Positions 1 through 64,000 of a DNA stretch of 64,000 nucleotides are shown here, piece by piece. The stretch is from a virus: the IMG/VR virus record IMGVR_UViG_3300023174_000087, positions 51,202 through 115,201 of that record. One strand, written 5' to 3'. Below the pieces are notes generated by a model. That model was not told the DNA's origin. It made no database searches and saw nothing but the letters and a program-made list of their open reading frames with translations. A program made the translations under genes and the position numbers. Each line of letters begins with the position of its first letter. Positions within the stretch are counted from its first letter, which is position 1.

Positions 1-3000
1 CATTTGGAAATACATTTTTAGGTTCAGATCTTGGTAAACAGGAAAAGAAAACATTTAAAGAAAACTCATCAAAGTTTGGTGTAGAGCAAGCAACCTCAGA
101 TCTTGCTCTTAAGTTATCTGCACAAGTCGCAGATGGAGTTCTTGGTAAAGACCAAGCAGAAAGCATCGCAGCAGCGCTTGCATTATCATTAAAAAATCAA
201 AAAATTGAAATGCAAGTAACTGGAAAAATGAGAACTATTTTGGGTCCAGATGGAGAAGATCTAAAAGATAAGCCATTAAAGACAAGAGTTTTACTTATTG
301 CTACAGCAAGACAAAGAAGCGAAAAAGCATTAAAAACAATTGAAACAAAAAGAGAAAATGGGGATAGCGCTAGAAAAGATATAGCAGCGCTTGCTGCATA
401 CAATATTAATAATCTTGAACTTGCAACAATGCAAGCAGACGCTGTTCAGTATGAATATGAAACACAAAAGAAGAAACTTGAAATTGAAATTGCTTCAACA
501 GCAAATGCTCAAAGAAAAGTAGAACTTGAAACTCAACTTGGTACACTAAACTCTAATAATCTTAAAAATACTGAAACAATGAACAACCAAGTTCTTATGA
601 ATATTAAACAAGCAGAACTTGATTTCCAAAAAGTTTATAGTGGATCTGTTTTGGGAAGTCAGGCAAATAGAGAGGACGCTTTCTTCGATGCCTCTAGAAC
701 TACAGTAACCAATGCTTATAAAGGTACAGATCAAGAAAAATCAGCATCCAATTTCTTAAAAAATACAAAGCAACTTGAGACTGGTGCAACATCTGGAACC
801 TATAATAGCAAAACAAGTTTATATGAAAAAAATGGTCTTGGAACTGCAAGAGCAGCACAAACATTCCAAGCAAAAATGGAACTATTGGTTGGCGGAAAAG
901 TAATTAGTCCAGATGAAGCAAATTCATGGATGAAGATGTTTAAGGGAAAACTAAATGAACTTGATTTAGCAATTAATACAAGCATTAAATTAAATGGCGC
1001 AGGTAAGACAAAAGAACTATTTAATATGTTCTCAGGATTTAGAAACAAAAAAGTTGCAACAAATATGATTCAACAGATTCTTTTAACAAAGAAAAATCCT
1101 GCAGAATTTGATGCAATTATGGAAACATTAAAGAATCTACAGGCACTTGATGGAACAGCAATAGATATGGAAGTTTTAATTAAATCTATTGGTTTATCTG
1201 GAGTAGATAAAATTAAAAAAGAATTTGAGCAAATTGAAGCATTAAAAGAAAAAGCAAAAAAAGAAGGCAAAAAGATAGACTTAGAAGAAGTAAAGAAAAA
1301 AGGCGGAACTGTAAATCCCGCAATTGAAGCACTTCAAAAAGATACTAAAGCCTATAAGAAATTTACTGACTTAAATGTAGAGCAACAGGGCGAGTACTTA
1401 CAAAAACTAACTGCTGCATATGCTTATCAATCACAATTAACAGACACACAACTTGAAGAAGAAGCAGCAACATGGGCTGCAGCACAGTTATGGGAAGAGG
1501 GAATTTCACAAGATGATGCAAAATACAAAGATTCATTAGCAGCAAAAATTGCAACCTATCTTTCAAAAGGACCCCAACAAAGAGCAGTTGATTCTTTAAT
1601 ACCATATCTAGATCCAACAATACCTTCAAAAACTGGAAATGGTGCAGGTGGTGGTGGTGGCGGAACAAGAGATGCAACTTATGATGATTTATTAAAGCGT
1701 TTGAGAAATGTTCGACTGGCTGCACTTAATGCAGCAGGAGGTTTTAAAGAACTTGAAAAAGCCATAGCAGCATCTGGAAGTAAAGCAATCAAGAATCAGT
1801 TTAATGGTTTAGAGCAACAACTTATTAAACTTGGAAAGTCTACTCAATTTTCTGATTATTTGGCGGGACTTGATCAAAAAGAATTAAATGTAATGGGCAA
1901 GGCTGCAACTAAAAATGGCATTGATCCAAATACAGGTAAAAAGAAAAAGGGTGTAAAGGCTGGAGACTTTATTCTTAGTGATAAAGGTCAAAAGATGGAA
2001 AAGGGCTTTGATAAAGCCGTTATAGGAGATTACAATAAAGAGCAGTTAAAATCTGTAACATTGGCCAAGCAGGAGATTGCAGCAAGAGGAAAACTTTTAG
2101 CACTGGGCTTTAAAGAAGTAGATATTCAGACAATGCTTGCAGATGAAAACTATAAGACACTTATTGCCACAGGCAAAGTAACTGATGCAGAATTAAAAAC
2201 AAATGCTGCACTAACCCAGCAAGCAAGAATTAGAAATCAAATTAATGGCGCAGTTGCTGGACAAAAAGAGTTGCAAAAAACTACAGAAAATCAAAAAAGA
2301 ATTCCAGAAGTTATAAAAATGATGCAACAGGCAGGAATGGATGCAGAAGCAATCCGTGCAGCAATATCAGATCCAGCAATGTTAGATACGTTAATAACTG
2401 GAATGGATAATTTTGCTACTTTGGCCAAAGATGCTCAAGCAGAATTTAATCATCTATTGTCACAGATTAATGAAATTCCAGAAAGAAAAATTGTTGAAAT
2501 TGCTTTTACTCAAACAAGAGAAGAAAAAATAATTAATGCTGCAAATGCCGCAGCAGAAATGTTTGATGCCTATAAGATGATTGATGAAAATACAATAAAG
2601 AATGCACAAGGAAATACTTATGCCAGCATTCAAACTCAGATGGATAACTTAAACAATCAAGCAAAAATTGTTCAAGACAGCATAAATATAACACAATCAC
2701 AGATTGATACTCTTCAGCAAGAAGTAGATAAAGATCAAAGAAATATAGAAACAAACTTTACTCGTCCAATTGAAGCAAAGCAAAGAGCAATTGAAAAACT
2801 AAATCGTACAGCAGAAATGAATTTTGTTCGTCCAATACAAACACTTCAAGATAGATCTGCTATTTTATCTCATGATTTAGAAGTAATGAGCCATGCAGCA
2901 GATCAGATTAATGAAAAATATGATAAGCAACAAGAAGCCCTTGCCAAGGTTTCTGAAATTAACCAACAAATTATTGAACAACAACAGCAACAACTTGGGT

Positions 3001-4364
3001 TAGCAGATGCATTATCCTCTGGAGATATTTCAGCAGCAGCAAAGGCTGTACAAGGAATGCGATCAACAAGTGCATCAAACTATGCACAAAATGCTGATAA
3101 GGCTTTGCAACAAGCAAGACAAAATGAAATTGATGGACTACGTGGTGGAGTAAGTGGAAAATCACAAAAAGATATTCAAGAAGAACAATATCAAATTGGG
3201 CAACAGGTTTATGATCTTGAACAAAAGAAGGCTGCCATTGATGTAGAGATACTTAAGATTCAGGATGAAATTTATAGTCTAGAGCAATCAAGACAAGTAG
3301 CACTTGATGCAATTCAAGTTAAAACAGATGCAATTGCTAAACTTCAATACGGAACACTTCTTGATCAGCAAAACCAACTTAAAACAATAAACGATCAAAA
3401 CCTTAAGTTACAGTTACAGAGTGATGTTCTTGCATTGCAAATAAGTCAAAATGATGCAAACAGAATTATTCAAGGCCAAACTAGAGCAGAGTGGGATCTT
3501 ACATTAAAAGCAGCCCAGGCCGCAGAAAAACTTGCAAAGGGGGATCTTGCTCTTGCACTTGCTGGAATCAATACGGTTTCTGGTACAGTAAAGGGCGCAT
3601 GGGACTCTATCAAATCATCTTATGATGCAATCAAAGATAAATCCATTACCATAACTCAACATATTGTTACTACATATGGAACAGCACTTGGTTTACCACC
3701 AGTCACACCAACAGTTCCACCGCCTTCAGGAGATCCAGCAAAGGCTCCAGGATCTGCTTGGGTTTCTGATGGCAACGGTGGCTGGAAGCAACCAACAAAA
3801 CCTGCTGGGGATTATGGTTGGGATGATAATCAAGGTTGGGTAAAGGGTTATTATAAAGATGATGCTAATATACCACAGCCAGGATCACAAACAGATTCAG
3901 CAGCAGAAGCAAATATGAGAGCAAAAGCACTTGAAGAAACAGCAAGAAGAGAAAAAGAAGCAGCAGACGCTAAAGTACAGGCAGAGGCTCTTGCATTGCT
4001 AAAAGCAAAAGAAGCAGCCTCAGCAAAAGCAGATCGCATTGCAACTGGATTTGGCTGGTATGGATTTGCTAAAGGTGGAATAGTTCCAAAATATTTTGCA
4101 TCAGGTGGTTTTGCTCGTGGAACAGATACAGTTCCAGCAATGCTAACCCCAGGAGAATTTGTAATGAGTAGATATGCTGTAAATAGCCATGGCATAAATA
4201 ATATGAGTGCTTTAAATTCAGGAACATCAATGGGCGATTCAGTGTATAATTATAACTTAAATGTAAGTGTAAGATCAGATGCTAGTCCAGACGAAATTGC
4301 AAGAACGGTAATGGCACAAATAAAGCAAGTAGACTCACAAAGAATTAAGGGGAATAGACTATAA
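1..4364 (+). CDS. Tail tape measure protein, C-terminal part (5'-truncated by the window)
   Basis: Frame open from base 3; long Ala/Gln/Lys coiled-coil; C-terminal FAKGG..FASGG..GTDTVPAMLTPGEFV motif typical of tape measures; followed by tail genes. Confidence 0.88.
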   Translation, partial: FGNTFLGSDLGKQEKKTFKENSSKFGVEQATSDLALKLSAQVADGVLGKDQAESIAAALALSLKNQKIEMQVTGKMRTILGPDGEDLKDKPLKTRVLLIATARQRSEKALKTIETKRENGDSARKDIAALAAYNINNLELATMQADAVQYEYETQKKKLEIEIASTANAQRKVELETQLGTLNSNNLKNTETMNNQVLMNIKQAELDFQKVYSGSVLGSQANREDAFFDASRTTVTNAYKGTDQEKSASNFLKNTKQLETGATSGTYNSKTSLYEKNGLGTARAAQTFQAKMELLVGGKVISPDEANSWMKMFKGKLNELDLAINTSIKLNGAGKTKELFNMFSGFRNKKVATNMIQQILLTKKNPAEFDAIMETLKNLQALDGTAIDMEVLIKSIGLSGVDKIKKEFEQIEALKEKAKKEGKKIDLEEVKKKGGTVNPAIEALQKDTKAYKKFTDLNVEQQGEYLQKLTAAYAYQSQLTDTQLEEEAATWAAAQLWEEGISQDDAKYKDSLAAKIATYLSKGPQQRAVDSLIPYLDPTIPSKTGNGAGGGGGGTRDATYDDLLKRLRNVRLAALNAAGGFKELEKAIAASGSKAIKNQFNGLEQQLIKLGKSTQFSDYLAGLDQKELNVMGKAATKNGIDPNTGKKKKGVKAGDFILSDKGQKMEKGFDKAVIGDYNKEQLKSVTLAKQEIAARGKLLALGFKEVDIQTMLADENYKTLIATGKVTDAELKTNAALTQQARIRNQINGAVAGQKELQKTTENQKRIPEVIKMMQQAGMDAEAIRAAISDPAMLDTLITGMDNFATLAKDAQAEFNHLLSQINEIPERKIVEIAFTQTREEKIINAANAAAEMFDAYKMIDENTIKNAQGNTYASIQTQMDNLNNQAKIVQDSINITQSQIDTLQQEVDKDQRNIETNFTRPIEAKQRAIEKLNRTAEMNFVRPIQTLQDRSAILSHDLEVMSHAADQINEKYDKQQEALAKVSEINQQIIEQQQQQLGLADALSSGDISAAAKAVQGMRSTSASNYAQNADKALQQARQNEIDGLRGGVSGKSQKDIQEEQYQIGQQVYDLEQKKAAIDVEILKIQDEIYSLEQSRQVALDAIQVKTDAIAKLQYGTLLDQQNQLKTINDQNLKLQLQSDVLALQISQNDANRIIQGQTRAEWDLTLKAAQAAEKLAKGDLALALAGINTVSGTVKGAWDSIKSSYDAIKDKSITITQHIVTTYGTALGLPPVTPTVPPPSGDPAKAPGSAWVSDGNGGWKQPTKPAGDYGWDDNQGWVKGYYKDDANIPQPGSQTDSAAEANMRAKALEETARREKEAADAKVQAEALALLKAKEAASAKADRIATGFGWYGFAKGGIVPKYFASGGFARGTDTVPAMLTPGEFVMSRYAVNSHGINNMSALNSGTSMGDSVYNYNLNVSVRSDASPDEIARTVMAQIKQVDSQRIKGNRL

Positions 4365-5023
4365 TGGCATCAGCATCATATTTATCGGGAAGAAAAAAAT
4401 ATGGCAGACCACAAGCAGCCTTATGGTCAAATAATGCTGGAACCCTAGTAAATGGTGTATATATACCAACAGGATATGAAATAGGTGCAGATCAAACTGG
4501 CGCTTTAAGTCAATCATATTTAGATCAATTTTTAATATTGTCTGATCACAATAGATCTCCAATTAATGTTGGAAATGAAAGAATTGAAAAACGTGAAAGA
4601 ATGATTAATGGAAGAATGCGCTCTTATCATGTTGCCGATAAACTTAAATTTGATTTTAGTTGGGATATGTTGCCATCCAGGTCTTATGCAGGAGTTCCTG
4701 AATTTAATAAAGATACTGGCAAAAGTTCTATGTTTGGTGGATCTGGTCTATCAACTGGGCCAGACTCAGAGTACACCATTGATGGTGGTGCAGGTGGAGC
4801 AGAATTATTAGACTGGTACGAAAATCATACTGGGTCATTTTGGATGTTTTTAGCATATGATAAATATACAAACTTTGGATCAGACGATAATGCATACGGA
4901 CATCTTGCACAGTATAATCAAATAGTTGAGGTTTTCTTTTCAAAGTTTGACTATTCTGTACAAAAAAGAGGAAATTCTAATATGGATCTTTGGAATGTAT
5001 CTGTGTCTTTGGAAGAAGTTTAA
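4364..5023 (+). CDS. Putative distal tail / minor tail protein
   Basis: Directly after tape measure (TAATG overlap); 219 aa, ERMINGRMRSYHVADK segment. Confidence 0.6.
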   Translation: MASASYLSGRKKYGRPQAALWSNNAGTLVNGVYIPTGYEIGADQTGALSQSYLDQFLILSDHNRSPINVGNERIEKRERMINGRMRSYHVADKLKFDFSWDMLPSRSYAGVPEFNKDTGKSSMFGGSGLSTGPDSEYTIDGGAGGAELLDWYENHTGSFWMFLAYDKYTNFGSDDNAYGHLAQYNQIVEVFFSKFDYSVQKRGNSNMDLWNVSVSLEEV

Positions 5024-8000
5024 TGTTTGATAACAAAGAACTTCAAGATCACTTGGAACAATCATCAACAGTAAAAACCCAATCTGCTGTAATTGCAGAG
5101 TGGAACATGAATATTCCCACAAACATTTTAAAAATCGGAAACTATAGATATAGACCAACAGTTACAGATTCAAAATACTCACTATTACCTAACACATTTG
5201 ATCCAAATGATGCTGGAAATTATTACACAGATGCTACTGATGCAGATATCACCATTGACGGCGGTATTGAAGATTCAGGGCTTCCCATATCTTTAACCAC
5301 CAAAAAAGATAAATTAAAAATGTTATATTCATTAGAGGATTGTTTTAAACAATTTAGACCTAGATCTGGAATTAATAAGGCTAAGTATTTTAGTGGATTA
5401 TTCTTGCACCATGCCAATATGCAAATGGCTGATAGACCAAGATATTATATGTCAGATAGGCAAGACATTTTTAAATATTGGACATCCTTTAGAACTGAGT
5501 CTGGCAGCGAATATGGTATTGCAAATAAAACATCTAACGGACAAAGAATAATTGAAGACTCTGTTCCATTTGTTGTTTACAAAGAAACAATTCCAGCAAA
5601 CAGAATTGTTGTGAAGATGCAAACTCATATTGGAAGCGTTGATCTTGGAAATATTGTTTATAATTCAAAATCAATACCAGACCCACTATACGGAGATGCA
5701 AATAAATCAACCCCACTTAAATGGAAGATACAGGTGCTCAAAGGTTCTAACTGGGTAGATGGTTTATCTTTTGCTGTAGGAGAACTTAGAGCAAACGGAA
5801 AACCTATAATTGGTTCAGATGGATATGTAGAACTATCGTATGGTCTAAAGATTCCACAAAAATATAAAAGCAATTTTATTTTTGCAGAAAGGCTTTCTTC
5901 AGAAACACTTTTGCCAGAAACAAATATAGATGGATATGCCTATTTAATTGTTTCAAATAGCAATACTCGTGGTACATTTCATATTTGGAATAAAACAATG
6001 TATGAAACTTTTTCTCCAGAATATACTTGGCAATTAGCAGAAGATGTTGTTGATAGTTTTACAAACTTTGTCACAGACCTTACATCCCCAGACTATTATA
6101 ATTCAACCACTGATAATTCATTAAAGTACCGTGAGTTTGAATATATTCGTGGTGTTCGAGTTGTTGTTGATTCAATGACAAAAGCAGATGCAACATTTGA
6201 TTTGATTGAAATATCTCCAAGACTTTCAGTCAATTTAACAGATAAAGTTTTACAGTATTCTGTAAATAAAAGTGCATCAGATCTTGGAGTAAGCGGTTTA
6301 CCAGTTGGACAATTACTTGCTTCAACTGGAAGCATAAAACTTTTTGACTACGATGATTCATTTAATCAAAATAACTCTAATAGTATAATTAAAAACTATG
6401 TCTCAAGGCACATACAGTTTAAGTTATACGAAGTGATTGTAGATATAAATGGATACGATTATTATGTTCCATTAAAAACTTTGTATTCTGAAGACTTTCC
6501 AAAAATATCAAATGCTGATAGAACTGTAGAACTTAGTTTAAGGGATATGTTTTTTTATCTTGAGTCTATTACTGCTCCACAAATTTTAATGACAAATGTA
6601 TCTATAAGTTCTGCAGTCTCCCTTCTTCTTGACTATGTAGGTTTTTCAAATTATTCTTTTAAAAGGGTAAACGGAGAATCTGAAGTTACAATTCCTTATT
6701 TTTTTATTCCACCCGATATGACAGTTGCACAAGTATTACAAGACCTTGCTGTATCAACACAAACAGCAATGTTCTTTGATGAATATAATAATTTTATAAT
6801 GATGAGTAAAAATTATACTATGCCTTTAGAGTCAGAGAGATCAACAAGCATAACACTTTATGGAACTAAAGACTTTGAAGATCAAGGGGTTCGTGAAAAT
6901 TACCCATTAAATAATAAACTAACAAATATTATAGAATTAAGCAATCAAGACTCAAAAGTATATAATGATGGATCAATCAATTATACTTCAAGATATATTC
7001 AAAGATCTGTTGGTTCCATAAAACAGGCGGGATTAATTGATAATGAAAAAACATGGATATATAAGCCAGTATTGCTATGGGAAGTTACGGGAACAGATAA
7101 TACAAAATCCGTAAATGGTCAAGTTGGAAATCAGTCAACATATGTTCTTGGTGCTATTGCATTAAATTCTGATCTATCAAATTTGGTGCCATATGTTTCA
7201 AACAATAAAATTTTAAATAATACTATCGACTTTGGTGAGTCAGTGTATTGGATGACAAGATATAATGGGTATTTTTATGCAAATGGAGAAGTTATTAAAT
7301 TTGATGCAGTTGAGTATAATGTTGCTGGTGTTGGAAATGTTTGGATTTCGGATGTACAGGAGTATCAGACTTATTTTTCAAAAATACCATTTAACGGAAA
7401 AATTTATCCAACAGGTCTTGTAAGAATATACTCAGAGCCAAATTATCAAGAAGTAAATGGTGTTTTAAAATTTAAAAATGGTGACGTTGCAAAACATGGA
7501 CGAGGACAGTTTGGAACATCTATTGTAAATCATTATGCTGGACTATCTACACATTGGACAGACAGTGAAAATCTTCGTGGTTGCACCATGACTGGAGATG
7601 TTCTATTTAGTTCTATTGCAACAGAACTACCACAACCAGAAACAGGGCTATCAGTTGCAGCAGCAGGTCTTTCTACTTTTATAAATAGTGGCACACCACC
7701 TGAAACTGAACAGCCAACAAGTAATTCTATTTCTCAAAAAGCAACAAGAAATGGAATCATTAAAAACTTTTTGTCTTCAACATATATTGATCAATCAGTA
7801 ACGAATAGACTGCAAAGCACACAATCTGGATCAATTCAATCATCAGCATTTGTTATGAACGGTCCAGCACTTACAACCTCTCCAAGACCAAAAGACTTTA
7901 TTTCTTATGTATACAAACCATTAGAAGATAAATTTAAGCATTTTGGAACAAGGGTTAGAATTATTGGAAAGATAGAAAACAATATGGATCGTGGTCAAAG

Positions 8001-9354
8001 TGCTATAGGCAGTTCAAACTACTATATTATTCCAGGCACGACTCCAGAAAAAAGCATTAGCATTTCTGGTGGATCTGGTGGAATGGCAGTTATGATTAAC
8101 CCAGATACAAATATCGGTTATTATTTTGAAATTGCAGCACTTGGTATTTCAGACATAAAAAAAACAGATACAAGCAATGTAAATAATGTTTTCTTTTATA
8201 AACTTTTAAAAGATGCCAATGGCAATGCTGTACCAGTAAAACTGTGGGAAGGGCTGTCAAAGATTATTGTTGATGATGGAAATTTTGTTGGTCAATATAG
8301 GGTTGCTGCTGAAGAAAATCCAACGGTATACGATCTTTCAGTTGAATACCAAGATATAGGAAAGACAAGAAGGTTTTATTTATATATAAATAATACTTTA
8401 ATTAAGACTGTTGATGATACAAACCCACTACCTATATACAAAAATATGGCTCTTTTTGTAAGAGGGGCTTCTAGACTTATGTTTGAAAATGTTTATGCAC
8501 TTACAAATAATTACTCTCAAAACACTACTTTTGCTTTAGACACACCAGTAAATTCAATATTTGATGGAAAAGAAATTAATGCCAACGACTCATTTAGAAA
8601 ATATGCTATGAGTGGAATTGTGCAAGGAACTCACCTTTCGGGAATATCTTCTTCGGAGGGGCCAAAGTACAATATATACTTTGAAGAATTTGGAACAATT
8701 ATGAGAGAGGCAGCAGCATTTAACATTCGATACGATAAGGCATATCCTGCACTTTATGCAAAAATATCTCCAACTTTTAATAGGCTCAAAGGCTATACTG
8801 TTTCTGGTTTTAGATCTGGTTCTTATGGCGCAGAATTTTTAATATTTAATGCTACAGACACTGCTCTTAGTTTAGATGAAACATCTGGAAACTATTTAAG
8901 AATTCAGGGTATTACTTTTACTCAACAATCTCAAAATATTTTAAAGGTAGATGATTATTTTTCTAAATATTCAGATTTATCAGATCCAGATGTAAGTGGA
9001 ACCACCGTTATTACATCTCCATTTAAAATAGCAAAAGATTATGAAGATATAAAATTAAGTAGAATGACTTATGGAAATAAAGCATTTAGTTTAAATGTTC
9101 CATATGTTCAAACGACAGATGATGCCAACAACCTAATGAAGTGGATGATTTCAAAAATAATGAAACCAAGAAGATCCATTGGTGTAAAGATTTTTGCTAA
9201 CCCAATGATTCAATTAGGAGATATAGTTTCAGTAGACTATACTGAAAATGAAATAAAAAAGGGTGGACCTTCTAGATATGTTGTATACAATATTGAGTAC
9301 TCAAAAGATAAAAATGGACCAAGCATGCAATTATTTTTAAGTGAGGTAGTTTAA
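5023..9354 (+). CDS. Large minor tail / baseplate hub protein
   Basis: About 1440 aa, beta-rich; C-terminal NPMIQLGDIV motif typical of hub proteins; ATG at 5023 overlaps the upstream stop. Confidence 0.65.
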   Translation: MFDNKELQDHLEQSSTVKTQSAVIAEWNMNIPTNILKIGNYRYRPTVTDSKYSLLPNTFDPNDAGNYYTDATDADITIDGGIEDSGLPISLTTKKDKLKMLYSLEDCFKQFRPRSGINKAKYFSGLFLHHANMQMADRPRYYMSDRQDIFKYWTSFRTESGSEYGIANKTSNGQRIIEDSVPFVVYKETIPANRIVVKMQTHIGSVDLGNIVYNSKSIPDPLYGDANKSTPLKWKIQVLKGSNWVDGLSFAVGELRANGKPIIGSDGYVELSYGLKIPQKYKSNFIFAERLSSETLLPETNIDGYAYLIVSNSNTRGTFHIWNKTMYETFSPEYTWQLAEDVVDSFTNFVTDLTSPDYYNSTTDNSLKYREFEYIRGVRVVVDSMTKADATFDLIEISPRLSVNLTDKVLQYSVNKSASDLGVSGLPVGQLLASTGSIKLFDYDDSFNQNNSNSIIKNYVSRHIQFKLYEVIVDINGYDYYVPLKTLYSEDFPKISNADRTVELSLRDMFFYLESITAPQILMTNVSISSAVSLLLDYVGFSNYSFKRVNGESEVTIPYFFIPPDMTVAQVLQDLAVSTQTAMFFDEYNNFIMMSKNYTMPLESERSTSITLYGTKDFEDQGVRENYPLNNKLTNIIELSNQDSKVYNDGSINYTSRYIQRSVGSIKQAGLIDNEKTWIYKPVLLWEVTGTDNTKSVNGQVGNQSTYVLGAIALNSDLSNLVPYVSNNKILNNTIDFGESVYWMTRYNGYFYANGEVIKFDAVEYNVAGVGNVWISDVQEYQTYFSKIPFNGKIYPTGLVRIYSEPNYQEVNGVLKFKNGDVAKHGRGQFGTSIVNHYAGLSTHWTDSENLRGCTMTGDVLFSSIATELPQPETGLSVAAAGLSTFINSGTPPETEQPTSNSISQKATRNGIIKNFLSSTYIDQSVTNRLQSTQSGSIQSSAFVMNGPALTTSPRPKDFISYVYKPLEDKFKHFGTRVRIIGKIENNMDRGQSAIGSSNYYIIPGTTPEKSISISGGSGGMAVMINPDTNIGYYFEIAALGISDIKKTDTSNVNNVFFYKLLKDANGNAVPVKLWEGLSKIIVDDGNFVGQYRVAAEENPTVYDLSVEYQDIGKTRRFYLYINNTLIKTVDDTNPLPIYKNMALFVRGASRLMFENVYALTNNYSQNTTFALDTPVNSIFDGKEINANDSFRKYAMSGIVQGTHLSGISSSEGPKYNIYFEEFGTIMREAAAFNIRYDKAYPALYAKISPTFNRLKGYTVSGFRSGSYGAEFLIFNATDTALSLDETSGNYLRIQGITFTQQSQNILKVDDYFSKYSDLSDPDVSGTTVITSPFKIAKDYEDIKLSRMTYGNKAFSLNVPYVQTTDDANNLMKWMISKIMKPRRSIGVKIFANPMIQLGDIVSVDYTENEIKKGGPSRYVVYNIEYSKDKNGPSMQLFLSEVV

Positions 9355-9845
9355 TGGCAACAGATGCAGTAGCAAATCAAGCAGCAAGTACTCCAAGCAC
9401 ATCTTCTAATGGAGTAAAAATTGCAACACCAGATTTATTTATCTTTAAAGATGAAGTTGTACCTATTGAAATAATGACAGATCTTATTTTTGAAAATATT
9501 GGTGGTCAAGAATTAATTACAATTTCAAGAAATGATATAATTTCTGGTCAGTCAATATATTATCAGCCAATTAAAAATATTAGTCATCTTTATATTCAAT
9601 ATAATCCACAAAATATATTAAACTTGCAAGACACATCTGCAACCTTCTTTAAAAATTATCCTATTAAATTTGAAAAATCAATCCCAATATCGGGAACTGG
9701 CCCAAACGGTGAGATTGTTTATTTAGATCCAGTAACTGGTGATCTTGTGATAAACGTAATTAATCTTGAAAGTGATGAACAGGTAGATGTTCAAATTTTG
9801 ATTGATGGCAAACTACTTAATGGTACAATATATGGGGCGGTATAA
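9354..9845 (+). CDS. Putative minor tail protein
   Basis: Coupled ORF within the tail module. Confidence 0.5.
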   Translation: MATDAVANQAASTPSTSSNGVKIATPDLFIFKDEVVPIEIMTDLIFENIGGQELITISRNDIISGQSIYYQPIKNISHLYIQYNPQNILNLQDTSATFFKNYPIKFEKSIPISGTGPNGEIVYLDPVTGDLVINVINLESDEQVDVQILIDGKLLNGTIYGAV

Positions 9846-9848
9846 AAA

Positions 9849-11006
9849 ATGATAACTAAAACAGGCAAAGGAATAATCACTAAATATCTTATTGGACAGG
9901 CACCAGCCTATGCTTCTTATGTTGCTGTAGGGTGTGGTCCTAATGCTATTAGCGGAAGTTTGGGTGATTACTCAGATCAGACATCCCTTGATTTTGAGAT
10001 GTTTCGTGTTCCAATTACATCAAGGGGTTTTGTAACTGAGGATGGCATAAATAAAGTTGTTTTGACAGCAGAACTACCTACAGAAGAAAGGTATGAAATA
10101 ACAGAAATTGGAATTTATTCTGCAGGATCAAATCCATCTGCTGGATCTTATGATAGCAGAAATCTTTTTTCTTTTACAGAAAATGAAAATTGGGAACATC
10201 ATACAAGCACGGCAGCAGGTGCAATTGATTCTATTACTACACCGTTAAATGAAGACAGTGGAAATAATACAATTACAACAACAAAAAAAGTTTTTCAAAC
10301 AAATGCAGATAATGTTGTCTTTACAAATACACAAAGACTAAACAGAAATGAAAGATGTAGGTTTTTAAATAATATTATTGTCATGTCTGGAGACTCATCT
10401 AAAATTGATTTGCTACCAAGCGGTAAACTTGATTTAGTATCTACATGGGGTACTGGACAAAATATTAAGAACTCTTCACATATACATCTTAATGGAACGC
10501 CTCCAGATTTTAATAAGCAATCTCCAAAAGATGAAATTCGTTTTGCATTTTCTGTAATTAATAAAAATGGAACAGATGGAACCAAGCCCAAAAAGATTAG
10601 ATTAATGGTAGAGTTTGCAGAAGATGATGCTTACAGCGTAGGACAATATGCAAGATTTGAAGTAGATATTTCTCATATTGATAATGATCCAGTTTATGAT
10701 TTTTCAGATAATAGATATTTTGTTGTATCTAAAAAATTAGAAGAACTAACAAAGACTTCTGCTTTTTCTTGGGGATCTATGAAACTTGTAAAAATACATG
10801 CATGCATTTTAGATCAAAACGATGAGCCATCTGAAAACTTTTTAGTTTGTCTTGATGCAATTAGATTAGAAAATACATATAGTCAAAATCCATTATATGG
10901 TCTTACAGGTTATTCTGTTGTAAAGAATACAAATGCAAGACCAATTATTAAGTCTGCAAACACATCAAATTTTATTGAGTTTAGATTTAATGTTGGTGTT
11001 GCGTAG
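9849..11006 (+). CDS. Putative tail/baseplate structural protein
   Basis: MITKTGK..YVAVGCG..ITEIGIYS N-terminus resembles tail-fibre/baseplate attachment domains. Confidence 0.55.
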   Translation: MITKTGKGIITKYLIGQAPAYASYVAVGCGPNAISGSLGDYSDQTSLDFEMFRVPITSRGFVTEDGINKVVLTAELPTEERYEITEIGIYSAGSNPSAGSYDSRNLFSFTENENWEHHTSTAAGAIDSITTPLNEDSGNNTITTTKKVFQTNADNVVFTNTQRLNRNERCRFLNNIIVMSGDSSKIDLLPSGKLDLVSTWGTGQNIKNSSHIHLNGTPPDFNKQSPKDEIRFAFSVINKNGTDGTKPKKIRLMVEFAEDDAYSVGQYARFEVDISHIDNDPVYDFSDNRYFVVSKKLEELTKTSAFSWGSMKLVKIHACILDQNDEPSENFLVCLDAIRLENTYSQNPLYGLTGYSVVKNTNARPIIKSANTSNFIEFRFNVGVA

Positions 11007-11446
11007 TGGCAGACTCAAAAATAAAAAAGGTAGTTATACCAAAATCTAAACTACCATCAGTTAGTGGAAATGAAAAGGGCTATACTGTAAGATATAGAAT
11101 TGTTTCAGAAGATAAAAATAGAACATCTCACTGGTCAGCACAATATAAACTTGGTGTACAAAATCAAACTCCAATAGATTATGCAATATCTGTTGATACT
11201 ACTGGAAAAATAATCAATGTTGTTTGGACACCACCAACTGGATCAACAAGTATTTTTGATGTATATGTTAAATGGGATAATCAAGATTGGAAATCTGTTG
11301 GTCAGGTTTTATCTCCAAACTACTCTGCCCTAGTGCCAGTTGGGTCAACATCTGTAAAAGTTGCTGTTCAGATTCCAACATTTCCAAAAAGTAGATTTGT
11401 GTTTGCCACACTGTTTGAAACAACAGCAACCTCTGTAGTGGTATAA
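11006..11446 (+). CDS. Putative minor tail protein (Ig/FN3-like)
   Basis: YTVRYRIVSEDKNRTSHWS; beta-rich; module position. Confidence 0.45.
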   Translation: MADSKIKKVVIPKSKLPSVSGNEKGYTVRYRIVSEDKNRTSHWSAQYKLGVQNQTPIDYAISVDTTGKIINVVWTPPTGSTSIFDVYVKWDNQDWKSVGQVLSPNYSALVPVGSTSVKVAVQIPTFPKSRFVFATLFETTATSVVV

Positions 11447-11447
11447 T
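11439..11447 (+). promoter_or_regulatory. Extended -10 promoter (TGgTATAAT), probably leaderless
   Basis: TATAAT 11442-11447, ATG at 11453, no SD. Confidence 0.6.
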
Positions 11448-11452
11448 AGATT

Positions 11453-11896
11453 ATGGCAAAAATTCCTGTACCTGACCGTGGTCAACCACTAGATGTTTCT
11501 TATATTTCTACATTAGCAGAAGCAGTTAATAGCCTTTCAGAGCAGATCACCCCAGCACTGTACAAGTATGTAACAGTAGACACTCCAAATGTCGGCAAGC
11601 AAAGTGTGAAGGCTTCTGAAGCACGTATTTTGGGTGGGTATGTAGAAGTTGTTAACAGTGCAGCAAAAACAAAAGGAGATACTGTAGCATTCTCATATGA
11701 TTTTGCAACAGATTTTAAGTATGCCCCGATTGCAACAGCAACACCTGTAAATATTGGAAATACATCTGCAGGTAAAAATGTTTCAGTAGTTTTAAAAACA
11801 GTAACGACATCAAAGGTTGAGGGTGTTGTTATTTTTAATGAAACTGGTGACCTAACAGTTGGAGTCAATCTAATAGTTGTTGGAATTCCTAATTAA
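11453..11896 (+). CDS. Putative tail fibre-associated protein
   Basis: C-terminal beta domain (FATDFKYAPIATAT) reminiscent of H-lectin/gp53-like tail-fibre ends. Confidence 0.4.
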   Translation: MAKIPVPDRGQPLDVSYISTLAEAVNSLSEQITPALYKYVTVDTPNVGKQSVKASEARILGGYVEVVNSAAKTKGDTVAFSYDFATDFKYAPIATATPVNIGNTSAGKNVSVVLKTVTTSKVEGVVIFNETGDLTVGVNLIVVGIPN

Positions 11897-12087
11897 TGCT
11901 AAGATGCGACAAATGCAAAGGAAGAATGTTTCTTGATAGACAATACAGTAGCCCAGGTCATCTAGAATCTTACTGCATGATGTGTGGCAATAGAAGATTC
12001 TTTAATCCACCACAGAATTCATCGGAGGGAAGATGGCTCTTAAAAAAGGAAGTATCCAGAGCGAAGGCTACAATCTCGCCCCTGTAA
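11896..12087 (+). CDS. Small zinc-ribbon protein
   Basis: CDKC...CMMC. Confidence 0.6.
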   Translation: MLRCDKCKGRMFLDRQYSSPGHLESYCMMCGNRRFFNPPQNSSEGRWLLKKEVSRAKATISPL

Positions 12088-12575
12088 TCCCAGGTAATAA
12101 AAAAGTTTGGTTTCTTAATGGAGACCTTGTTAGAGTTCATCACCTAAATAGATCTAATGGGATAATGTCTGTTTATAACATTACAAAAGATCAAATTGAA
12201 AGTTGCTTAATTGGTGATTTTAAGAAAAAAAGAGAAAGAGCATATACTGTTGGTGAAACTGCTACTCTTGTGAATAGACATAAAAAATATATGCCATCAT
12301 TAATGAAACGAGGAATCATTCCTTTTCCCACTGGGTCTCAAAAGGGAGGGGCAAGGGGATTTCAAGTAAGATCATACTATTCAGAATCACAAGTAAGGGC
12401 TATACGTGATATACTTGCTACGTACCATATTGGAAGACCAAGAAAAGATAATTTAATAACAAATGACATGACGCCAAGTGTGCAAGAGTTGACAAGGCGT
12501 ATGGGAGACGGTATACTTACATATGTAAGAACTGAAGATGGACGATTCATTCCAGTGTGGTCTGAGTCTATTTAA
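12033..12575 (+). CDS. Putative MerR-like HTH DNA-binding protein
   Basis: YTVGETATLVNRH...RGIIP...RSYYSESQV pattern. Confidence 0.55.
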   Translation: MALKKGSIQSEGYNLAPVIPGNKKVWFLNGDLVRVHHLNRSNGIMSVYNITKDQIESCLIGDFKKKRERAYTVGETATLVNRHKKYMPSLMKRGIIPFPTGSQKGGARGFQVRSYYSESQVRAIRDILATYHIGRPRKDNLITNDMTPSVQELTRRMGDGILTYVRTEDGRFIPVWSESI

Positions 12576-12588
12576 CGAAGGGTATAAA

Positions 12589-12798
12589 ATGGAAAATGAT
12601 TTAACTAAGGTATCCGTAACACTAGGATATACACTCAATTTAGGAAATTTTCAGTCTTTGAGACTTGATCTTGGAGTTATTGATTCCAAGCGTGATGGTG
12701 AAAATACAGAGCAGGCTTTTGAGCGTGTATATAAGTTTGTTGAAGACAAACTAACTGATAAGATTAAAGAAGCGCAGTTAGAAGCATCTGATTCATAA
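12589..12798 (+). CDS. Hypothetical protein
   Basis: GYTLNLGNFQSLRLD; SD-like GAAGGG upstream. Confidence 0.6.
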   Translation: MENDLTKVSVTLGYTLNLGNFQSLRLDLGVIDSKRDGENTEQAFERVYKFVEDKLTDKIKEAQLEASDS

Positions 12799-13109
12799 TG
12801 GCAGAACGCAAAGACCGAATGGCTTTGCTTTCACGCTACAGCAAGTTACATACTGCAAAGTATGAGCAAAAGCCATCACTAAATCTTAATGTGGAGCAAT
12901 GGGCTTCCGATGCACTTATTGAATCATATGGAATTGGAGCCTGCTACGATGTTCTTGACTATTACTTTAGTGTTGCTCAGTCTCCCTCTTGGAATTACTT
13001 TGCATACAATACAGAAAAAATATTACAAGCAAGACTAGATAAACAACAAGATGATAAAGAAAGAGCAGAGCGTAGACAAATGGCAAAGGAGTGGTTGAAG
13101 AGTGAATGA
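12798..13109 (+). CDS. Hypothetical protein upstream of the helicase
   Basis: Coupled ORF, 103 aa. Confidence 0.6.
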   Translation: MAERKDRMALLSRYSKLHTAKYEQKPSLNLNVEQWASDALIESYGIGACYDVLDYYFSVAQSPSWNYFAYNTEKILQARLDKQQDDKERAERRQMAKEWLKSE

Positions 13110-14322
13110 TACAGAGGCAAAATTAATTTCAGCAGTCCTAAATGATAAACAGGTTCATGTTCTTCTTCAAGCAAATGTCGATAATCTTTTAAGAACCCAT
13201 ACAGACGTATGGACATTTATTAGAAATTATTTTGAGGCTAATTCTGCAGTACCACCAACAAACCTTGTTGTTGAAAAGTTTCGTGACTTTCAGCCAATCT
13301 CTGGTGTTGGAGCAACAAAGCATCACTTAGAAGAACTTCAAACAGAATACCTAAATGATAGTTTAAAAGATATTCTTAGAAATGCTGCAGGAGAAGTTCA
13401 ACAAGGACAGGGTACAAAAGCATTAGACGAACTAATTACAAAAACATCAGAATTAAAAAAGAATACATCTGCTATTCGTGATATTGATGTTACAGACCTA
13501 GAGTCTGCAATAGCCTATTTTGAAAACATGAAAGAACAACAGGCACTTGGCAAGGTTGGAATTAAAACTAACTTACCAGGTTTTGATAACTACTTACCAG
13601 CAGGAATTATGCCAGGGCAGTTAGGAGTCTTTTTAGCATACCCAGGTATAGGAAAGTCATGGATGGCCTTATACTTTGCTGTACAGGCCTGGAAACAGGG
13701 TAAGACACCCCTTGTAATTTCACTTGAGATGTCAGAAACAGAAGTTCGTAATCGTGTTTTTACAATTATGGGTGAGGGTCTTTGGTCACATAGAAAGATA
13801 TCTAATGGGGAGATTGAGTTAGATATGTTGAAGTCGTGGCATGCTAAAAATCTTCAAGGAAAACCAGAGTTTCATATTATCTCAAATGATCAAGGTGGAG
13901 AAATAAACCCATCGGTTCTCCGTGGAAAAATTGATCAATATAAACCAGATTTTGTTATTGTTGATTACCTACAGTTAATGGCTCCAAATCAAAAGTCAGA
14001 CAATGAAACAGTACGAATGAAAAACCTTTCACGAGAACTCAAACTTATGGCTATTGGTGAAGAGGTTCCTATTATTGCTATCTCATCTGCAACTCCTGAT
14101 GATGTTAATGATCTTAGTGGTGTCCCAACACTTGGACAAACTGCTTGGTCAAGACAGATTGCATATGATGCAGACTGGGTAATTGCACTGGGTCGTGCTA
14201 CAAATAGCGATATTATTGAGTGTGCTTTTAGAAAAAACCGTAATGGATTTATGGGGGACTTTCTTGTCCAGGTGGACTTTGATAGAGGGTATTATAGATA
14301 TAAAGATTTTGAAGATAAGTAG
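13102..14322 (+). CDS. dnaB: Replicative DNA helicase (DnaB family)
   Basis: Walker A AYPGIGKS, ISLEMS, VIVDYLQLM, YDAD, KNRNG. Confidence 0.93.
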   Translation: MNDTEAKLISAVLNDKQVHVLLQANVDNLLRTHTDVWTFIRNYFEANSAVPPTNLVVEKFRDFQPISGVGATKHHLEELQTEYLNDSLKDILRNAAGEVQQGQGTKALDELITKTSELKKNTSAIRDIDVTDLESAIAYFENMKEQQALGKVGIKTNLPGFDNYLPAGIMPGQLGVFLAYPGIGKSWMALYFAVQAWKQGKTPLVISLEMSETEVRNRVFTIMGEGLWSHRKISNGEIELDMLKSWHAKNLQGKPEFHIISNDQGGEINPSVLRGKIDQYKPDFVIVDYLQLMAPNQKSDNETVRMKNLSRELKLMAIGEEVPIIAISSATPDDVNDLSGVPTLGQTAWSRQIAYDADWVIALGRATNSDIIECAFRKNRNGFMGDFLVQVDFDRGYYRYKDFEDK

Positions 14323-14334
14323 TTATAATGTGAT

Positions 14335-14661
14335 ATGGAAAACTATCACCATAAGACTATAAAAAGGTTTAACCTTAACGGCATCATTCAGGATGAGGCT
14401 AGACTTGGTAGACTAAAAAATGAATACATTAGGTTGATAGAATCAGAAATGAGACTATCTGGATATGTACCAAGGCTTGACATAGAACCAGATTTTACGA
14501 TAGACTATAATGAAAGAAAGAAATATTTTGAGTTTGAATTAACATTATACGGGGTTCACATAGGGAGAAAGAAAAGCGAATGGATAGTAGGAATAGACGG
14601 AGCAAGACCAATAGTTACACTACAGAACAGATCAAAAGAGTTCTCACAGGAACAGGCGTAA
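14335..14661 (+). CDS. Hypothetical protein
   Basis: ORF with TATAAT 5 nt upstream of ATG. Confidence 0.55.
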   Translation: MENYHHKTIKRFNLNGIIQDEARLGRLKNEYIRLIESEMRLSGYVPRLDIEPDFTIDYNERKKYFEFELTLYGVHIGRKKSEWIVGIDGARPIVTLQNRSKEFSQEQA

Positions 14662-15524
14662 CTATTGAGTCTGAGGTAGACTCCGATTATATAATTTTTT
14701 GTCCATTCCACAATAATAATAGAACACCTGCTGGTGAAATAGATAAAAGCAATGGAACGTTTTTTTGTTTTTCTTGCCACCATATTGCTGATTTAATTGA
14801 GTTTGTTATGCATATGTCTGGGCGAACATATTTTGAGGCTATTAGATTTATAAAAAGCAAAGAGGTTGAGGGCAACCTAGAAAGAGATATTAACAAGGCT
14901 TTTATTGTTAAGCCAGACTTTGTTACGTATGACGAATTAATATTAAAGCGTTTGTATAATAATTTAGTAACATCCGATAGAGCAAAAGATTACTTTAACT
15001 ATAGAAAAATCAACATCCAGTCTTGGTCAAAATTTTCTTTGGGTTATTCTGAAAAACAAGATATGGTTACCGTTCCAGTGCATAGTCCAGATGGAATGCC
15101 AATCGGATTTGTTGGCAGATCAATTGAGGGTAAAGAGTTTAAGAATACTCCAGGTTTGCCTAAATCAAAAACATTGTTTAATCTTCACAGAGTAAAAACA
15201 TCAAACAAGGTTTATGTTGTTGAATCTTCTTTTGATGCTATAAGGCTTGATCAGGTGGGTATTCCAGCAATTGCAACTTTAGGATCTAATGTTTCAAATA
15301 CACAGATAGAATTATTGCAAAAATGTTTTAATGATATAATTATAGTTGCAGATAATGATGAGGCTGGTGGTAATATGAAAACAAAAATAATTGAAAAACT
15401 TGGGTCTCGTGTGTCTGTAATACAGTTAGACAGTAAATATAAAGACATTGGCGACATGGAAGATTCTGCAATAATTAAATTAGAAAGCGATTTTACTAAA
15501 GATATTGTGGCCATGTTAAAATGA
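14580..15524 (+). CDS. dnaG: DNA primase (Zn-finger plus TOPRIM)
   Basis: CPFH...CFSC; VVESSFDA; ADNDEAG; KDIGD. Confidence 0.92.
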   Translation: MDSRNRRSKTNSYTTEQIKRVLTGTGVTIESEVDSDYIIFCPFHNNNRTPAGEIDKSNGTFFCFSCHHIADLIEFVMHMSGRTYFEAIRFIKSKEVEGNLERDINKAFIVKPDFVTYDELILKRLYNNLVTSDRAKDYFNYRKINIQSWSKFSLGYSEKQDMVTVPVHSPDGMPIGFVGRSIEGKEFKNTPGLPKSKTLFNLHRVKTSNKVYVVESSFDAIRLDQVGIPAIATLGSNVSNTQIELLQKCFNDIIIVADNDEAGGNMKTKIIEKLGSRVSVIQLDSKYKDIGDMEDSAIIKLESDFTKDIVAMLK

Positions 15525-15814
15525 AAAATAAAGCACAATGGTTTTTACCTATAAAAAATATGAAAAATAAAACATATTGGAATAAACCAAATACTGTTGA
15601 ATTTTTTGCTTTTGCTACAAAGTTAGTTATTATTTTTCCAGGTTTGCTTTTTGGTAAACAAATTTGGTGGCTTTATATTTTTGCACTAGCGTCAAGCCTA
15701 TCTCTTATTTGGTCTTCAACAATAAAAACTTTGCCATCTATTATTTTATTTAATATTGGTTGGTCTATCCTTGCTACTTTAGCAATTTTAAAACACTTTG
15801 GAGCAATACTATGA
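15521..15814 (+). CDS. Small membrane protein
   Basis: Three hydrophobic segments; ATGA overlaps on both sides. Confidence 0.6.
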   Translation: MKNKAQWFLPIKNMKNKTYWNKPNTVEFFAFATKLVIIFPGLLFGKQIWWLYIFALASSLSLIWSSTIKTLPSIILFNIGWSILATLAILKHFGAIL

Positions 15815-33037: not shown

Positions 33038-33039
33038 GT

Positions 33040-36442: not shown

Positions 36443-36470
36443 CAAATATATAGATTGGTATAATGTTTTT

Positions 36471-49280: not shown

Positions 49281-49562
49281 ATGAAACACCATTGGAAAGA
49301 CAATGCCGCATGTTTAGATTATGATACAAATTTATTTTTTGATAAATATGAAGAAGATGAGGTTCTGCGACCTGCAATAGATAAACTATGCTCAACATGC
49401 CCAGTAAGCAAGACATGCTTTGCTGTTGGAATTTCACAAAAAGAATGGGGCATTTGGGGTGGTGTATACTTAGAAGGTGGATCTATTTCAAAAGAATTTA
49501 GCAAGCACAAGAGTAAATCTGACTGGGCAAACACTTGGCAGCATTTGACAATGGAAAATTAA
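49281..49562 (+). CDS. whiB: WhiB-family Fe-S transcription factor
   Basis: W..AAC..FF..CSTCPVSKTC..WGIWGG. Confidence 0.92.
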   Translation: MKHHWKDNAACLDYDTNLFFDKYEEDEVLRPAIDKLCSTCPVSKTCFAVGISQKEWGIWGGVYLEGGSISKEFSKHKSKSDWANTWQHLTMEN

Positions 49563-55200: not shown

Positions 55201-55203
55201 TTG

Positions 55204-55274
55204 CTTCCAGACATAGACTCGAACTATGATTCACGCCTTCAAAGGGCGTTGTCCTGCCATTGGACGATCTGGAA
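55204..55274 (-). tRNA. tRNA-Gln(TTG)
   Basis: TTCCAGA/TCTGGAA; ACGCC-CTTTGAA-GGCGT; TTCGAGT. Confidence 0.88.
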
Positions 55275-55278
55275 CTAG

Positions 55279-55351
55279 TATCCCCAACGGGATTCGAACC
55301 CGTGTTGCCACCGTGAAAGGGTGGAGTCCTAGGCCTCTAGACCATGGGGAC
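55279..55351 (-). tRNA. tRNA-Glu(TTC)
   Basis: GTCCCCA/TGGGGAT; CCACC-CTTTCAC-GGTGG; TTCGAAT. Confidence 0.92.
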
Positions 55352-55352
55352 T

Positions 55353-55426
55353 TGGAGCGAGTGACCAGAATCGAACTGGCACAACCAACTTGGAAGGATG
55401 GTGCACTACCATTATGCAACACTCGC
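55353..55426 (-). tRNA. tRNA-Gly(TCC)
   Basis: GCGAGTG/CACTCGC; loop CTTCCAA; CCA end encoded. Confidence 0.9.
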
Positions 55427-55430
55427 TTTG

Positions 55431-55503
55431 TACCCCTGGCAAGAATCGAACTTGCGACGCATGGCTTAGAAGTCCATCGTTCTGTCCACTGAACTACAGA
55501 GGT
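55431..55503 (-). tRNA. tRNA-Arg(TCT)
   Basis: ACCTCTG/CAGGGGT; loop CTTCTAA; TTCGATT. Confidence 0.9.
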
Positions 55504-55507
55504 TTAG

Positions 55508-55578
55508 TAGGCCTAGAAGGTAATGCTCCTTCTTCTCAGGATTAAAAGTCCTGAGCATCACTTTAATGCTTTAGGCCC
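55508..55578 (-). tRNA. tRNA-Lys(TTT) with non-canonical D and T loops
   Basis: GGGCCTA/TAGGCCT; CAGGA-CTTTTAA-TCCTG; T arm GAAGG-AGCATTA-CCTTC. Confidence 0.75.
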
Positions 55579-55582
55579 ATTG

Positions 55583-55656
55583 TACACCAGGTAGGACTTG
55601 AACCTACGATCTTCAGTATATAAGACTGATGCCTTAACCGACTTGGCTACTGGTGC
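55583..55656 (-). tRNA. tRNA-Ile(TAT)
   Basis: GCACCAG/CTGGTGT; TCAGT-CTTATAT-ACTGA; TTCAAGT; discriminator A. Confidence 0.85.
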
Positions 55657-62661: not shown

Positions 62662-62702
62662 ATAATTATTATACACCATAGGAAATAAAGTATAATAGAA
62701 TC

Positions 62703-63020
62703 ATGAATGAAGCCATACTTTACATACTTTATAGCCCAATACACAATGCAGTAAAGATAGGCATATCAGATATATCTGGGCAAAGATTTGCAAAACACAG
62801 AACTAAAGGTTGGTTGCTTGTATCTTATTGGCATTTTTTTCAAGGGGAAAAAGCAAGATCTGTAGAATCTAAAATACTAAAAACACTAAGAGACAAACAC
62901 GGACACTTTTTAAATAAAGAACAAATGCCACAAGGAGGTTATACTGAAACCTTTGATGCATCTAAGATAACTCGTAAAGGTTTAATTCGTATGGTCAACA
63001 AGGCTATAAAGGAGTCTTAA
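62703..63020 (+). CDS. GIY-YIG-like (T5orf172-type) protein
   Basis: LYIL..AVKIGIS..RF..H..E..GGYTETF. Confidence 0.65.
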   Translation: MNEAILYILYSPIHNAVKIGISDISGQRFAKHRTKGWLLVSYWHFFQGEKARSVESKILKTLRDKHGHFLNKEQMPQGGYTETFDASKITRKGLIRMVNKAIKES

Positions 63021-63302: not shown

Positions 63303-63370
63303 TATACTATTGTATCAGAGCCATTACTCAAAGTCAACCTAAGAGTCAAACATTTTGCTATAATAGTAGT

Positions 63371-63649: not shown

Positions 63650-64000
63650 TTATAATATTCTTTAAGTTTCGCCGCAAAATAGAAGTAATAAACCTTTCCA
63701 TGCCCTACACGGGCACTATCGGTGATCTGCCTTCATATGCCTGTATAGGCTATCGTGGGCAAAACCTACTCTAAAGTCCCATTCTTTCTTACAGACAGGA
63801 CAGATAATAGTTCTAGCCATTTGAATCCTCCACCTTATCTTTAGGCACCCATACTTTCTTTCCATCTTTCCATACAGGCCAATAGCCAAGGCTACGCCAG
63901 TCCATACTCATAACTTTAGGATCTTTTGGCATTTACGCACCAAATCTTTCCATCACTCATGGTCTGGTGTGCTTCCCAGAACCACTCTGATTCTTTAGAT

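Follow-up and report, generated by a model that had tools for sequence, protein, structure and literature searches.

According to the survey of Rusinov et al. (2018; PMC6286503), about one viral genome in ten shows complete or nearly complete loss of restriction sites, and here we describe such a purge of short palindromes, above all AGCT, in IMG/VR virus record IMGVR_UViG_3300023174_000087, a single virus contig of 115,201 bp (hereafter G000). The window that we analyzed is a stretch of 64,000 nucleotides comprising bases 51202-115201 of this contig, i.e. its right-hand 64 kb, and all positions given below are those of the window unless G000 is named. As in the phages of Rusinov et al., orthodox type II palindromes are eliminated from the genome of an apparently non-temperate double-stranded DNA phage that possesses no recognizable methylase, whereas the purge described here extends through a very large clade of uncultured lake phages, in which the sets of purged words are lineage-specific and in which both relaxation and reversal are seen. 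The mechanism itself is textbook, although it is here unusually complete and phylogenetically rich. What is added here is the control provided by relaxation and reversal, the diversity of the purged word sets (termed purge barcodes below), and the mismatch with recognizable host enzymes. Among the papers that we searched, we found no account of such a purge in lake actinophages.

The nearest cultured relatives are the Stanwilliamsviridae, Streptomyces phages of 120-135 kb such as BillNye, with which G000 shares the portal, the protease, the major capsid protein (MCP; ~40% at the amino acid level), DnaB, DnaE (54%), RecA and WhiB (~41-45%) in a similar gene order. Further likenesses are a GC content that appears to lie far below that of the host, the possession of many tRNAs, and the purge of one 4-mer, since in BillNye (NC_042105, 10000-59999) GATC is found 0 times against 143 expected, with AGCT and CCGG both normal. 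The relationship is nevertheless one of distant protein similarity only, DNA similarity being limited to one 160-bp stretch, and G000 differs in its GC content (35% versus 53%), in its lake origin and in the words that are purged.

With regard to known restriction-modification (R-M) systems, AGCT is the AluI site, CCGG is the HpaII/MspI site and CGCG is of the FnuDII/BstUI type. The recognition words of these three kinds of system are exactly those purged in G000. No AluI-like or CGCG-specific enzyme was recognized in our searches of candidate hosts, whereas an HpaII-family pair is present in the candidate host order considered further below.

Word counts in the window and the whole genome

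G000 is 100% complete according to CheckV, has 35% GC and is 92% coding. Its gene set includes a portal, protease, MCP, tail fibres, ribonucleotide reductase, DnaB, a DnaE-type polymerase and RecA, as well as WhiB, a tryptophan halogenase, a carbamoyltransferase and nine tRNAs. The purged stretch and the residual sites of the third purged word are as follows:

1-64000, no strand: DNA free of AGCT and CCGG, which covers the window and holds for the whole genome too.
About 34973 in the window, and G000 10253, 10859, 14483 and 40951: the five CGCG sites of the genome.

We found no AGCT on either strand of the window, where 100 dinucleotide-preserving shuffles gave 252.8 (sd 13.2) and where a second-order Markov model predicts 178. 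For the whole genome the count is likewise 0, against 340 expected (z = -25.9), and the absence is even along its length, with 0 in every 11.5-kb bin against 26-47 expected. CCGG is equally absent, although 17-51 copies would be expected in the window and 46 genome-wide, and CGCG is reduced to 5 occurrences in the genome against 29 expected. Partial depletion was found genome-wide for ACGT (72/182, observed/expected), TCGA (64/116) and GGCC (63/114). Strong depletion is confined to short palindromes centred on CG or GC, and no 5-mer, 6-mer or degenerate motif in the genome is comparably depleted.

An earlier note on this DNA, made by reading the letters alone, had proposed an apparent purge of AGCT, and had described GATC, TGCA and CATG as common. 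Our data confirm the absence of AGCT and make it stronger, as it extends to every part of the window and of the genome, and the three other words are indeed frequent, with GATC at expectation in the genome (401/419) and TGCA and CATG mildly low (observed/expected 0.70-0.86). What the note overlooked is that CCGG and CGCG are purged as well. The count of k-mers against a Markov expectation that it had proposed places the AGCT ratio at 0 rather than near 1, and places that of CCGG at 0 also.

Identical multi-kb contigs were found at ~180x depth in an independent lake metagenome belonging to another study, and because the window is matched exactly there, it is not an artefact of a single assembly. 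None of the 40 variants listed for metagenome contigs matching the window creates a new AGCT or CCGG, which is a powerless test given that only ~0.8 would be expected. As a separate observation, the first 15 kb of the genome (G000 1-15000, the early region, outside the window and made up of small leftward genes) show a broader scarcity of 4-bp palindromes: the pooled palindrome observed/expected ratio excluding AGCT and CCGG is 0.69-0.79 there versus 0.91-0.93 elsewhere, and in the first 11.5 kb TTAA stands at 41/78 and GTAC at 12/27.

The purge among relatives

An MCP search of IMG/VR returned more than 599 related contigs, from which word counts were taken for the 80 best loci, and purge barcodes were surveyed in the 52 MCP-linked loci that reach 8 kb or more, not all of which were testable for every word. 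A second, independent sample consisted of the 80 best loci of 400 contigs carrying a conserved gene for a 129-amino-acid protein (1.17 Mb in all), and three near-complete relatives (G001, G002 and G005) were read end to end. In the 80 best MCP loci AGCT occurs 898 times against 2,981 expected, all 898 falling within 15 loci, and CCGG occurs 17 times against 467 expected. In the barcode survey AGCT was purged in 41 of the 52 loci and GCGC in 15; for CCGG the figure is 47 of 51 testable loci and for CGCG it is 23 of 35. GATC, GGCC and GTAC were purged once each, and at least eleven distinct word combinations were seen. In the second sample AGCT stands at 0/4,125, CCGG at 0/309 and CGCG at 2/233.

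Among the near-complete relatives, G005 is without AGCT, CCGG and CGCG; G002 is without CCGG and CGCG and has AGCT relaxed at 333/534, evenly spread; and G001 (43% GC) is without CCGG, CGCG and GCGC and has AGCT at a normal 581/629. No dependence on flanking bases was found for the AGCT sites of relaxed lineages. When these states are mapped onto an MCP tree, freedom from AGCT extends to the outgroups and to the deepest rows, where MCP identity falls to 62%, normal AGCT is found in one clade and one further row (L070), and the intermediates are nested inside AGCT-free clades, such that at least 5-8 changes of AGCT state are required. The deep AGCT-free rows together with the nested intermediates indicate that the purge is old and has been relaxed several times. 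It is also current: the closest relatives, at ~78% DNA identity, differ from G000 by ~3,500 substitutions per 16 kb, of which 0 create an AGCT, where ~50 new sites would be expected if those substitutions fell randomly with the same spectrum. Selection against AGCT is therefore still enforced. AGCT-free and AGCT-normal relatives co-occur in one metagenome, 3300046779.

Three further observations concern the words that individual relatives lack. In G002 the SacI-type word GAGCTC is found 0 times despite the 333 AGCT present, where a Markov model predicts ~6 and a dinucleotide model 17; this lineage may avoid a 6-bp site that contains AGCT. The most distant relative, an 85-kb contig from a metagenome-assembled genome (MAG) labelled Bifidobacterium (L135, MCP identity 62%), lacks AGCT (0/81), GATC (0/43), GGCC (0/25), CCGG (0/13) and CGCG (0/9), and has GCGC at 1/16. 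Finally, CGCG is found 5 times in G000, 0 times in G001, G002 and G005, and at expectation (6/6) in a close relative of G000 (L006), and it seems that the sub-lineage of G000 is losing its ban on CGCG.

Codon frames, non-coding DNA and tRNA genes

Expectations from codon frequencies were derived for each of the three ways in which AGCT can lie across codons, and in all of them the word is missing: AGC|Tnn stands at 0/41, nAG|CTn at 0/70 and nnA|GCT at 0/272, and the corresponding figures for CCGG are 0/12, 0/39 and 0/1. The 9.3 kb of non-coding DNA contain 0 AGCT against ~25 expected, and the nine tRNA genes of G000 contain 0. Synonymous alternatives are enriched in its place. After an A-ending codon alanine is written GCA 710 times, GCC 95 times, GCG 35 times and GCT never, while GCT follows a T-ending codon 497 times and a G-ending codon (nnG|GCT) 162 times; preceding a CTN leucine codon, lysine, glutamate and glutamine are written AAA/GAA/CAA 238 times and AAG/GAG/CAG 0 times. 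Where a relative has AGCT and both encoded amino acids are the same in G000, the latter has AACT, AGTT, AGCA, GGCT or TGCT instead, which are synonymous rewrites. Because all three frames, the non-coding DNA and the tRNA genes are all at zero, the avoidance operates on DNA rather than on translation, independent of frame and coding status. The codon-level details given in the earlier note hold on full counting (nnA|GCT 0 versus 272, nnG|GCT 162 and nnA|GCA 710), and codon-pair bias alone, which that note had named as an outcome that would overturn its reading, is contradicted by the same zeros in three frames, non-coding DNA and tRNAs.

The tRNA genes provide a natural control, as the canonical D-arm TAGCTCAG...GAGC contains the banned word. 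The three genes concerned are:

36370-36443, plus strand: tRNA-Asn(GTT), with the D-arm TAACTCAG...GAGT (A10-U25), which replaces the canonical form.
55430-55503, minus strand: tRNA-Arg(TCT), with the D-arm TAGTTCAG...GAAC (U11-A24).
55582-55656, minus strand: tRNA-Ile(TAT), with the D-arm TAGCCAAG...AGGC; the tRNA-Ile(TAT) of G001, for which orthology is less certain, has TAGCTCAG...GAGC.

The D-stems of both tRNA-Asn and tRNA-Arg(TCT) stay paired in G000, and the arms initially read by eye for these two tRNAs, with their pairing, were correct. In the relatives the ortholog of tRNA-Asn has TAACTCAG...GAGT in the AGCT-free G005, and TAGCTCAG...GAGC in G002 and G001. That of tRNA-Arg(TCT) has TAGTTCAG...GAAC in G005, TAACTCAG...GAGT in G002 and TAGCTCAG...GAGC in G001, and AGCT is present in 9 of the 16 tRNAs of G001. 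Judged from these orthologous tRNAs of AGCT-free (G005) versus relaxed or normal (G002, G001) genomes, the rewritten D-stems are a cost of the AGCT ban, paid with a compensating change at the pairing partner and reversed once the ban lifts. As a side note on the tRNA genes (55203-55656, minus strand, and 36370-36443, plus strand), six of the nine phage tRNAs have the anticodons TTG, TTC, TCC, TCT, TTT and TAT, for A-ending codons. This suggests a host GC content notably above the 35% of the phage, as in the Streptomyces sister family.

Proposed restriction by the host and alternative explanations

We put the probability that the purge of AGCT, CCGG and CGCG is classical restriction-site avoidance at roughly 85%. 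The word statistics, the frame independence, the clade pattern, the tRNA control and the lack of recognized protective genes are observations; the role of an R-M endonuclease of the host as selecting agent and the identity of that host are inferred. Long-term selection against an AluI-type site, as proposed in the earlier note, is the best-supported explanation, given that the avoidance is frame-independent, synonymous, palindrome-specific, clade-wide and reversible in relatives. Further points in its favour are that the cultured sister family follows the same strategy with another word (GATC in BillNye), that the candidate host order described below holds C5-methylase/REase cassettes, and that the classical AGCT enzymes are of actinomycetal origin. 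In such a scenario a virulent, WhiB-encoding and siphovirus-like lake actinophage would enter its hosts with unmodified DNA, and a single unmethylated site would suffice to expose the infecting genome to cleavage by a type II endonuclease of the host. Purifying selection over a long time would then remove all AGCT, all CCGG and nearly all CGCG, the cheapest change winning in each case: a synonymous codon or another codon pair within genes, and in a tRNA D-stem a base change accompanied by a compensating change at the pairing partner. In a lineage no longer meeting AGCT restriction, sites would be expected to drift back and the tRNAs to regain the canonical TAGCTCAG.

The gene content of the phage fits the proposal that its DNA is not otherwise protected. 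In G000 we recognized no C5 methylase (PF00145), N4/N6 methylase (PF01555), Dam-type/D12 methylase (PF02086), ThyA-like hydroxymethylase (PF00303) or TGT/DpdA gene (PF01702), and PF00145, PF02086, PF00303 and PF01702 are also absent from G001, G002 and G005, the search with PF01555 having covered G000 only. No methylase was found among the genes particular to the AGCT-tolerant relatives either, which makes it more likely that tolerance reflects a difference in host. A tyrosine integrase was not found in any of the four near-complete genomes, a search that did not extend to serine integrases or repressors.

Avoidance might also be imposed from within the phage, if it encoded one or more 4-cutters, e.g. 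for degradation of host DNA, and kept its own genome free of their sites without a methylase. There is room for such enzymes among the many unannotated open reading frames, and small nuclease-like proteins common to the AGCT-free G000 and G005 were undetected in G001 and G002, namely a T5orf172/GIY-YIG-like protein (105 amino acids, 62703-63020), a DenV-like protein and a resolvase. These proteins, however, match repair, resolvase or homing-type families rather than restriction endonucleases (REases), and the 129-amino-acid protein that PHROGs labels as a nuclease is holin-like by sequence. No HpaII-family REase was found in five genomes of the clade, three to four purged words in shifting sets would need equally many enzymes to be gained and lost, and we found no difference in gene content that tracks the AGCT state, all of which makes self-avoidance very unlikely. 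Mutational decay, whether through deamination of 5-methylcytosine (m5C) or through another context-specific bias with no selection on the sites, draws some support from the AACT and AGTT of the tRNA variants, which are the transition products of AGCT deamination on either strand. Yet a bias cannot yield exact zeros (0/340 in G000 and 0/4,125 in relatives), neither AACT/AGTT (observed/expected 1.11 in G000 versus 1.05 in G001) nor CTGG/CCAG (2.00 versus 2.14) are in excess, the replacements are scattered over many synonymous options, and tRNA changes compensated at the pairing partner are what selection produces; we consider decay highly improbable.

Still less credence is due to a translational, codon-pair or RNA-level constraint, or to an artefact of sequencing or assembly, for which we see hardly any chance. 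With 92% of the genome coding, tetramer frequencies might in principle reflect codon effects, but avoidance is equal across the three frames, non-coding DNA and tRNA genes, and relatives with orthologous proteins carry normal AGCT; as for an artefact, purged and normal relatives come from the same metagenome and an independent study gives the exact sequence. The alternative to which we would give slightly more room, improbable as it is, is a host defence other than methylase-paired type II R-M that recognizes AGCT, CCGG or CGCG. It would account for cognate R-M genes being rare or unrecognizable in the sampled candidate hosts, for acI bins without methylation by single-molecule real-time (SMRT) sequencing, and for several methylase neighbours without a family match. 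This rarity may however be technical, as islands are under-sampled in MAGs and SMRT sequencing misses m5C, and candidate-host genomes carry the words at normal frequency and so need some protection. To our knowledge methylation is the only way in which hosts protect such words.

If classical restriction-site avoidance is indeed the explanation, the question becomes which hosts impose it. The following gene is informative at the level of phylum:

49281-49562, plus strand: WhiB-like transcription factor (PF02467, 46 bits, above the cut-off).

A tblastn search with this WhiB against cultured phages gave 320 hits out of 320 in actinophages, the best being Streptomyces and Rhodococcus phages, and a Protein Atlas search returned viral clusters only, with no clue to the host. 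WhiB and phage kinship place the host in the phylum Actinomycetota, and the host-prediction clue that the earlier note saw in the purge did not lead below this level. Contigs of the phage clade, up to 85 kb in length, are present in eight GTDB species-representative MAGs from four phyla:

MAG labels holding clade contigs: Flavobacterium, Flavipsychrobacter, Lishizhenia, Polynucleobacter, Methylococcus, Aquiluna, Bifidobacterium and an Actinomycetota.

MAG binning was rejected as a link to the host, as labels spread across four phyla probably result from composition-based mis-binning. The candidate host order was reached via a 1.3-Mb MAG labelled 'Actinomycetota bacterium' that carries a contig of the clade. 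Genomes of this order span 1.1-2.2 Mb, with 41-49% GC in four closed genomes and 38-47% at methylase loci, and by size and GC the order is consistent with Nanopelagicales. The Nanopelagicales are without CRISPR (PMC10202952), which fits a heavy reliance on R-M.

C5 methylases were found in 48 of 201 genomes of the candidate order. On closed chromosomes they are often syntenic, at ~390-513 kb, and accompanied by differing REase families (LlaMI/BcnI, HpaII, BpuJI, Sau3AI-like and unknown ones), and this locus looks like a hypervariable R-M island. Neighbours of the methylases include LlaMI/BcnI, NgoPII, EcoO109I, BpuJI, NgoFVII-C and Sau3AI/MutH-like REases, as well as several without a family match. 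In 2 of the 201 genomes the gene next to a C5 methylase encodes an HpaII-family REase, and none was found in 151 relatives of the Aquiluna MAG. The MspI model had no match in the 201 genomes nor in any control and is hence uninformative, and NCBIfam assigned no specificity to the methylases or their neighbours. The classical AGCT enzymes AluI, MltI and OxaI come from Actinomycetota, and no family model for R.AluI is known to us. A 2008 classification of type II enzymes listed it without an assigned fold, in an 'unknown superfamily' of two members (PMC2441816).

Several observations weigh against an explanation by host restriction. MAGs from several phyla hold contigs of the clade, and the order examined here is no more than a candidate host; HpaII-family REases are rare (2/201) though CCGG is purged nearly clade-wide; and the commonest cassette of the candidate order looks Sau3AI-like (GATC), yet GATC is normal in the phage. 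The four closed genomes of the candidate order have normal AGCT and CCGG (observed/expected 0.91-1.12), and no AGCT-specific REase or methylase was recognized in any candidate host. To the same side belongs SMRT metaepigenomics of Lake Biwa, in which acI bins had no methylated motif and no methylase, and in which AGCT methylation (m4C) was seen only in a Nitrosoarchaeum (PMC6329791). It should be borne in mind that SMRT sequencing detects m5C poorly and that the acI bins were incomplete, island genes often being missing from bins. The AGCT-specific system that the earlier note placed in the host lineage could accordingly not be demonstrated in candidate hosts, either as a cognate enzyme or as methylation.

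The near-universal purge of CCGG and AGCT, set against the rarity of recognizable cognate enzymes, points to under-sampled defence islands. Although tentative, and in our view rather doubtful at present, it is attractive to think that purge barcodes are a record of a hidden repertoire of 4-cutter R-M systems with cytosine methylases, including an unrecognized AluI-like system, residing in the hypervariable islands of streamlined freshwater Actinomycetota without CRISPR, where it would escape MAGs and SMRT methylomes. If true, uncultured phages could be assigned to host immune types by their purge barcodes, which might also serve to predict host range. More generally, the findings speak for strong and long-lasting restriction pressure on abundant lake phages whose hosts lack CRISPR, a pressure that rewrites even conserved tRNA D-stems. 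On the practical side, DNA of this clade should resist digestion by AluI and HpaII/MspI (and by BstUI), which offers a handle for enrichment from viromes.

Two other genes deserve comment, the first of which had been taken in the earlier note as a long-standing member of the same gene pool:

15760-17331, plus strand: tryptophan halogenase (Pfam PF04820, E = 7e-105; 29% GC).

This gene contains 0 AGCT against ~3.8 expected from its own composition. It is absent from the three near-complete relatives G001, G002 and G005, and was found only in a near-identical contig (L181, 94% identity) and in a 113-kb contig (L182, 37% identity) that is also free of AGCT and CCGG. The halogenase thus belongs to an AGCT-free phage gene pool, in agreement with the note, but its 29% GC and its absence from three near-complete relatives mark it as a fairly recent, lineage-specific acquisition and not an old resident. 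The second gene, at 32935-33324 on the plus strand, encodes the 129-amino-acid protein used above for sampling. Its PHROGs label of 'nuclease' was rejected, as the sequence instead has a zinc ribbon (CxxC...C) followed by two hydrophobic, transmembrane helices, and is holin-like. In the 80 best of the 400 related contigs this protein is 84-98% identical, which makes it more conserved than the capsid protein.

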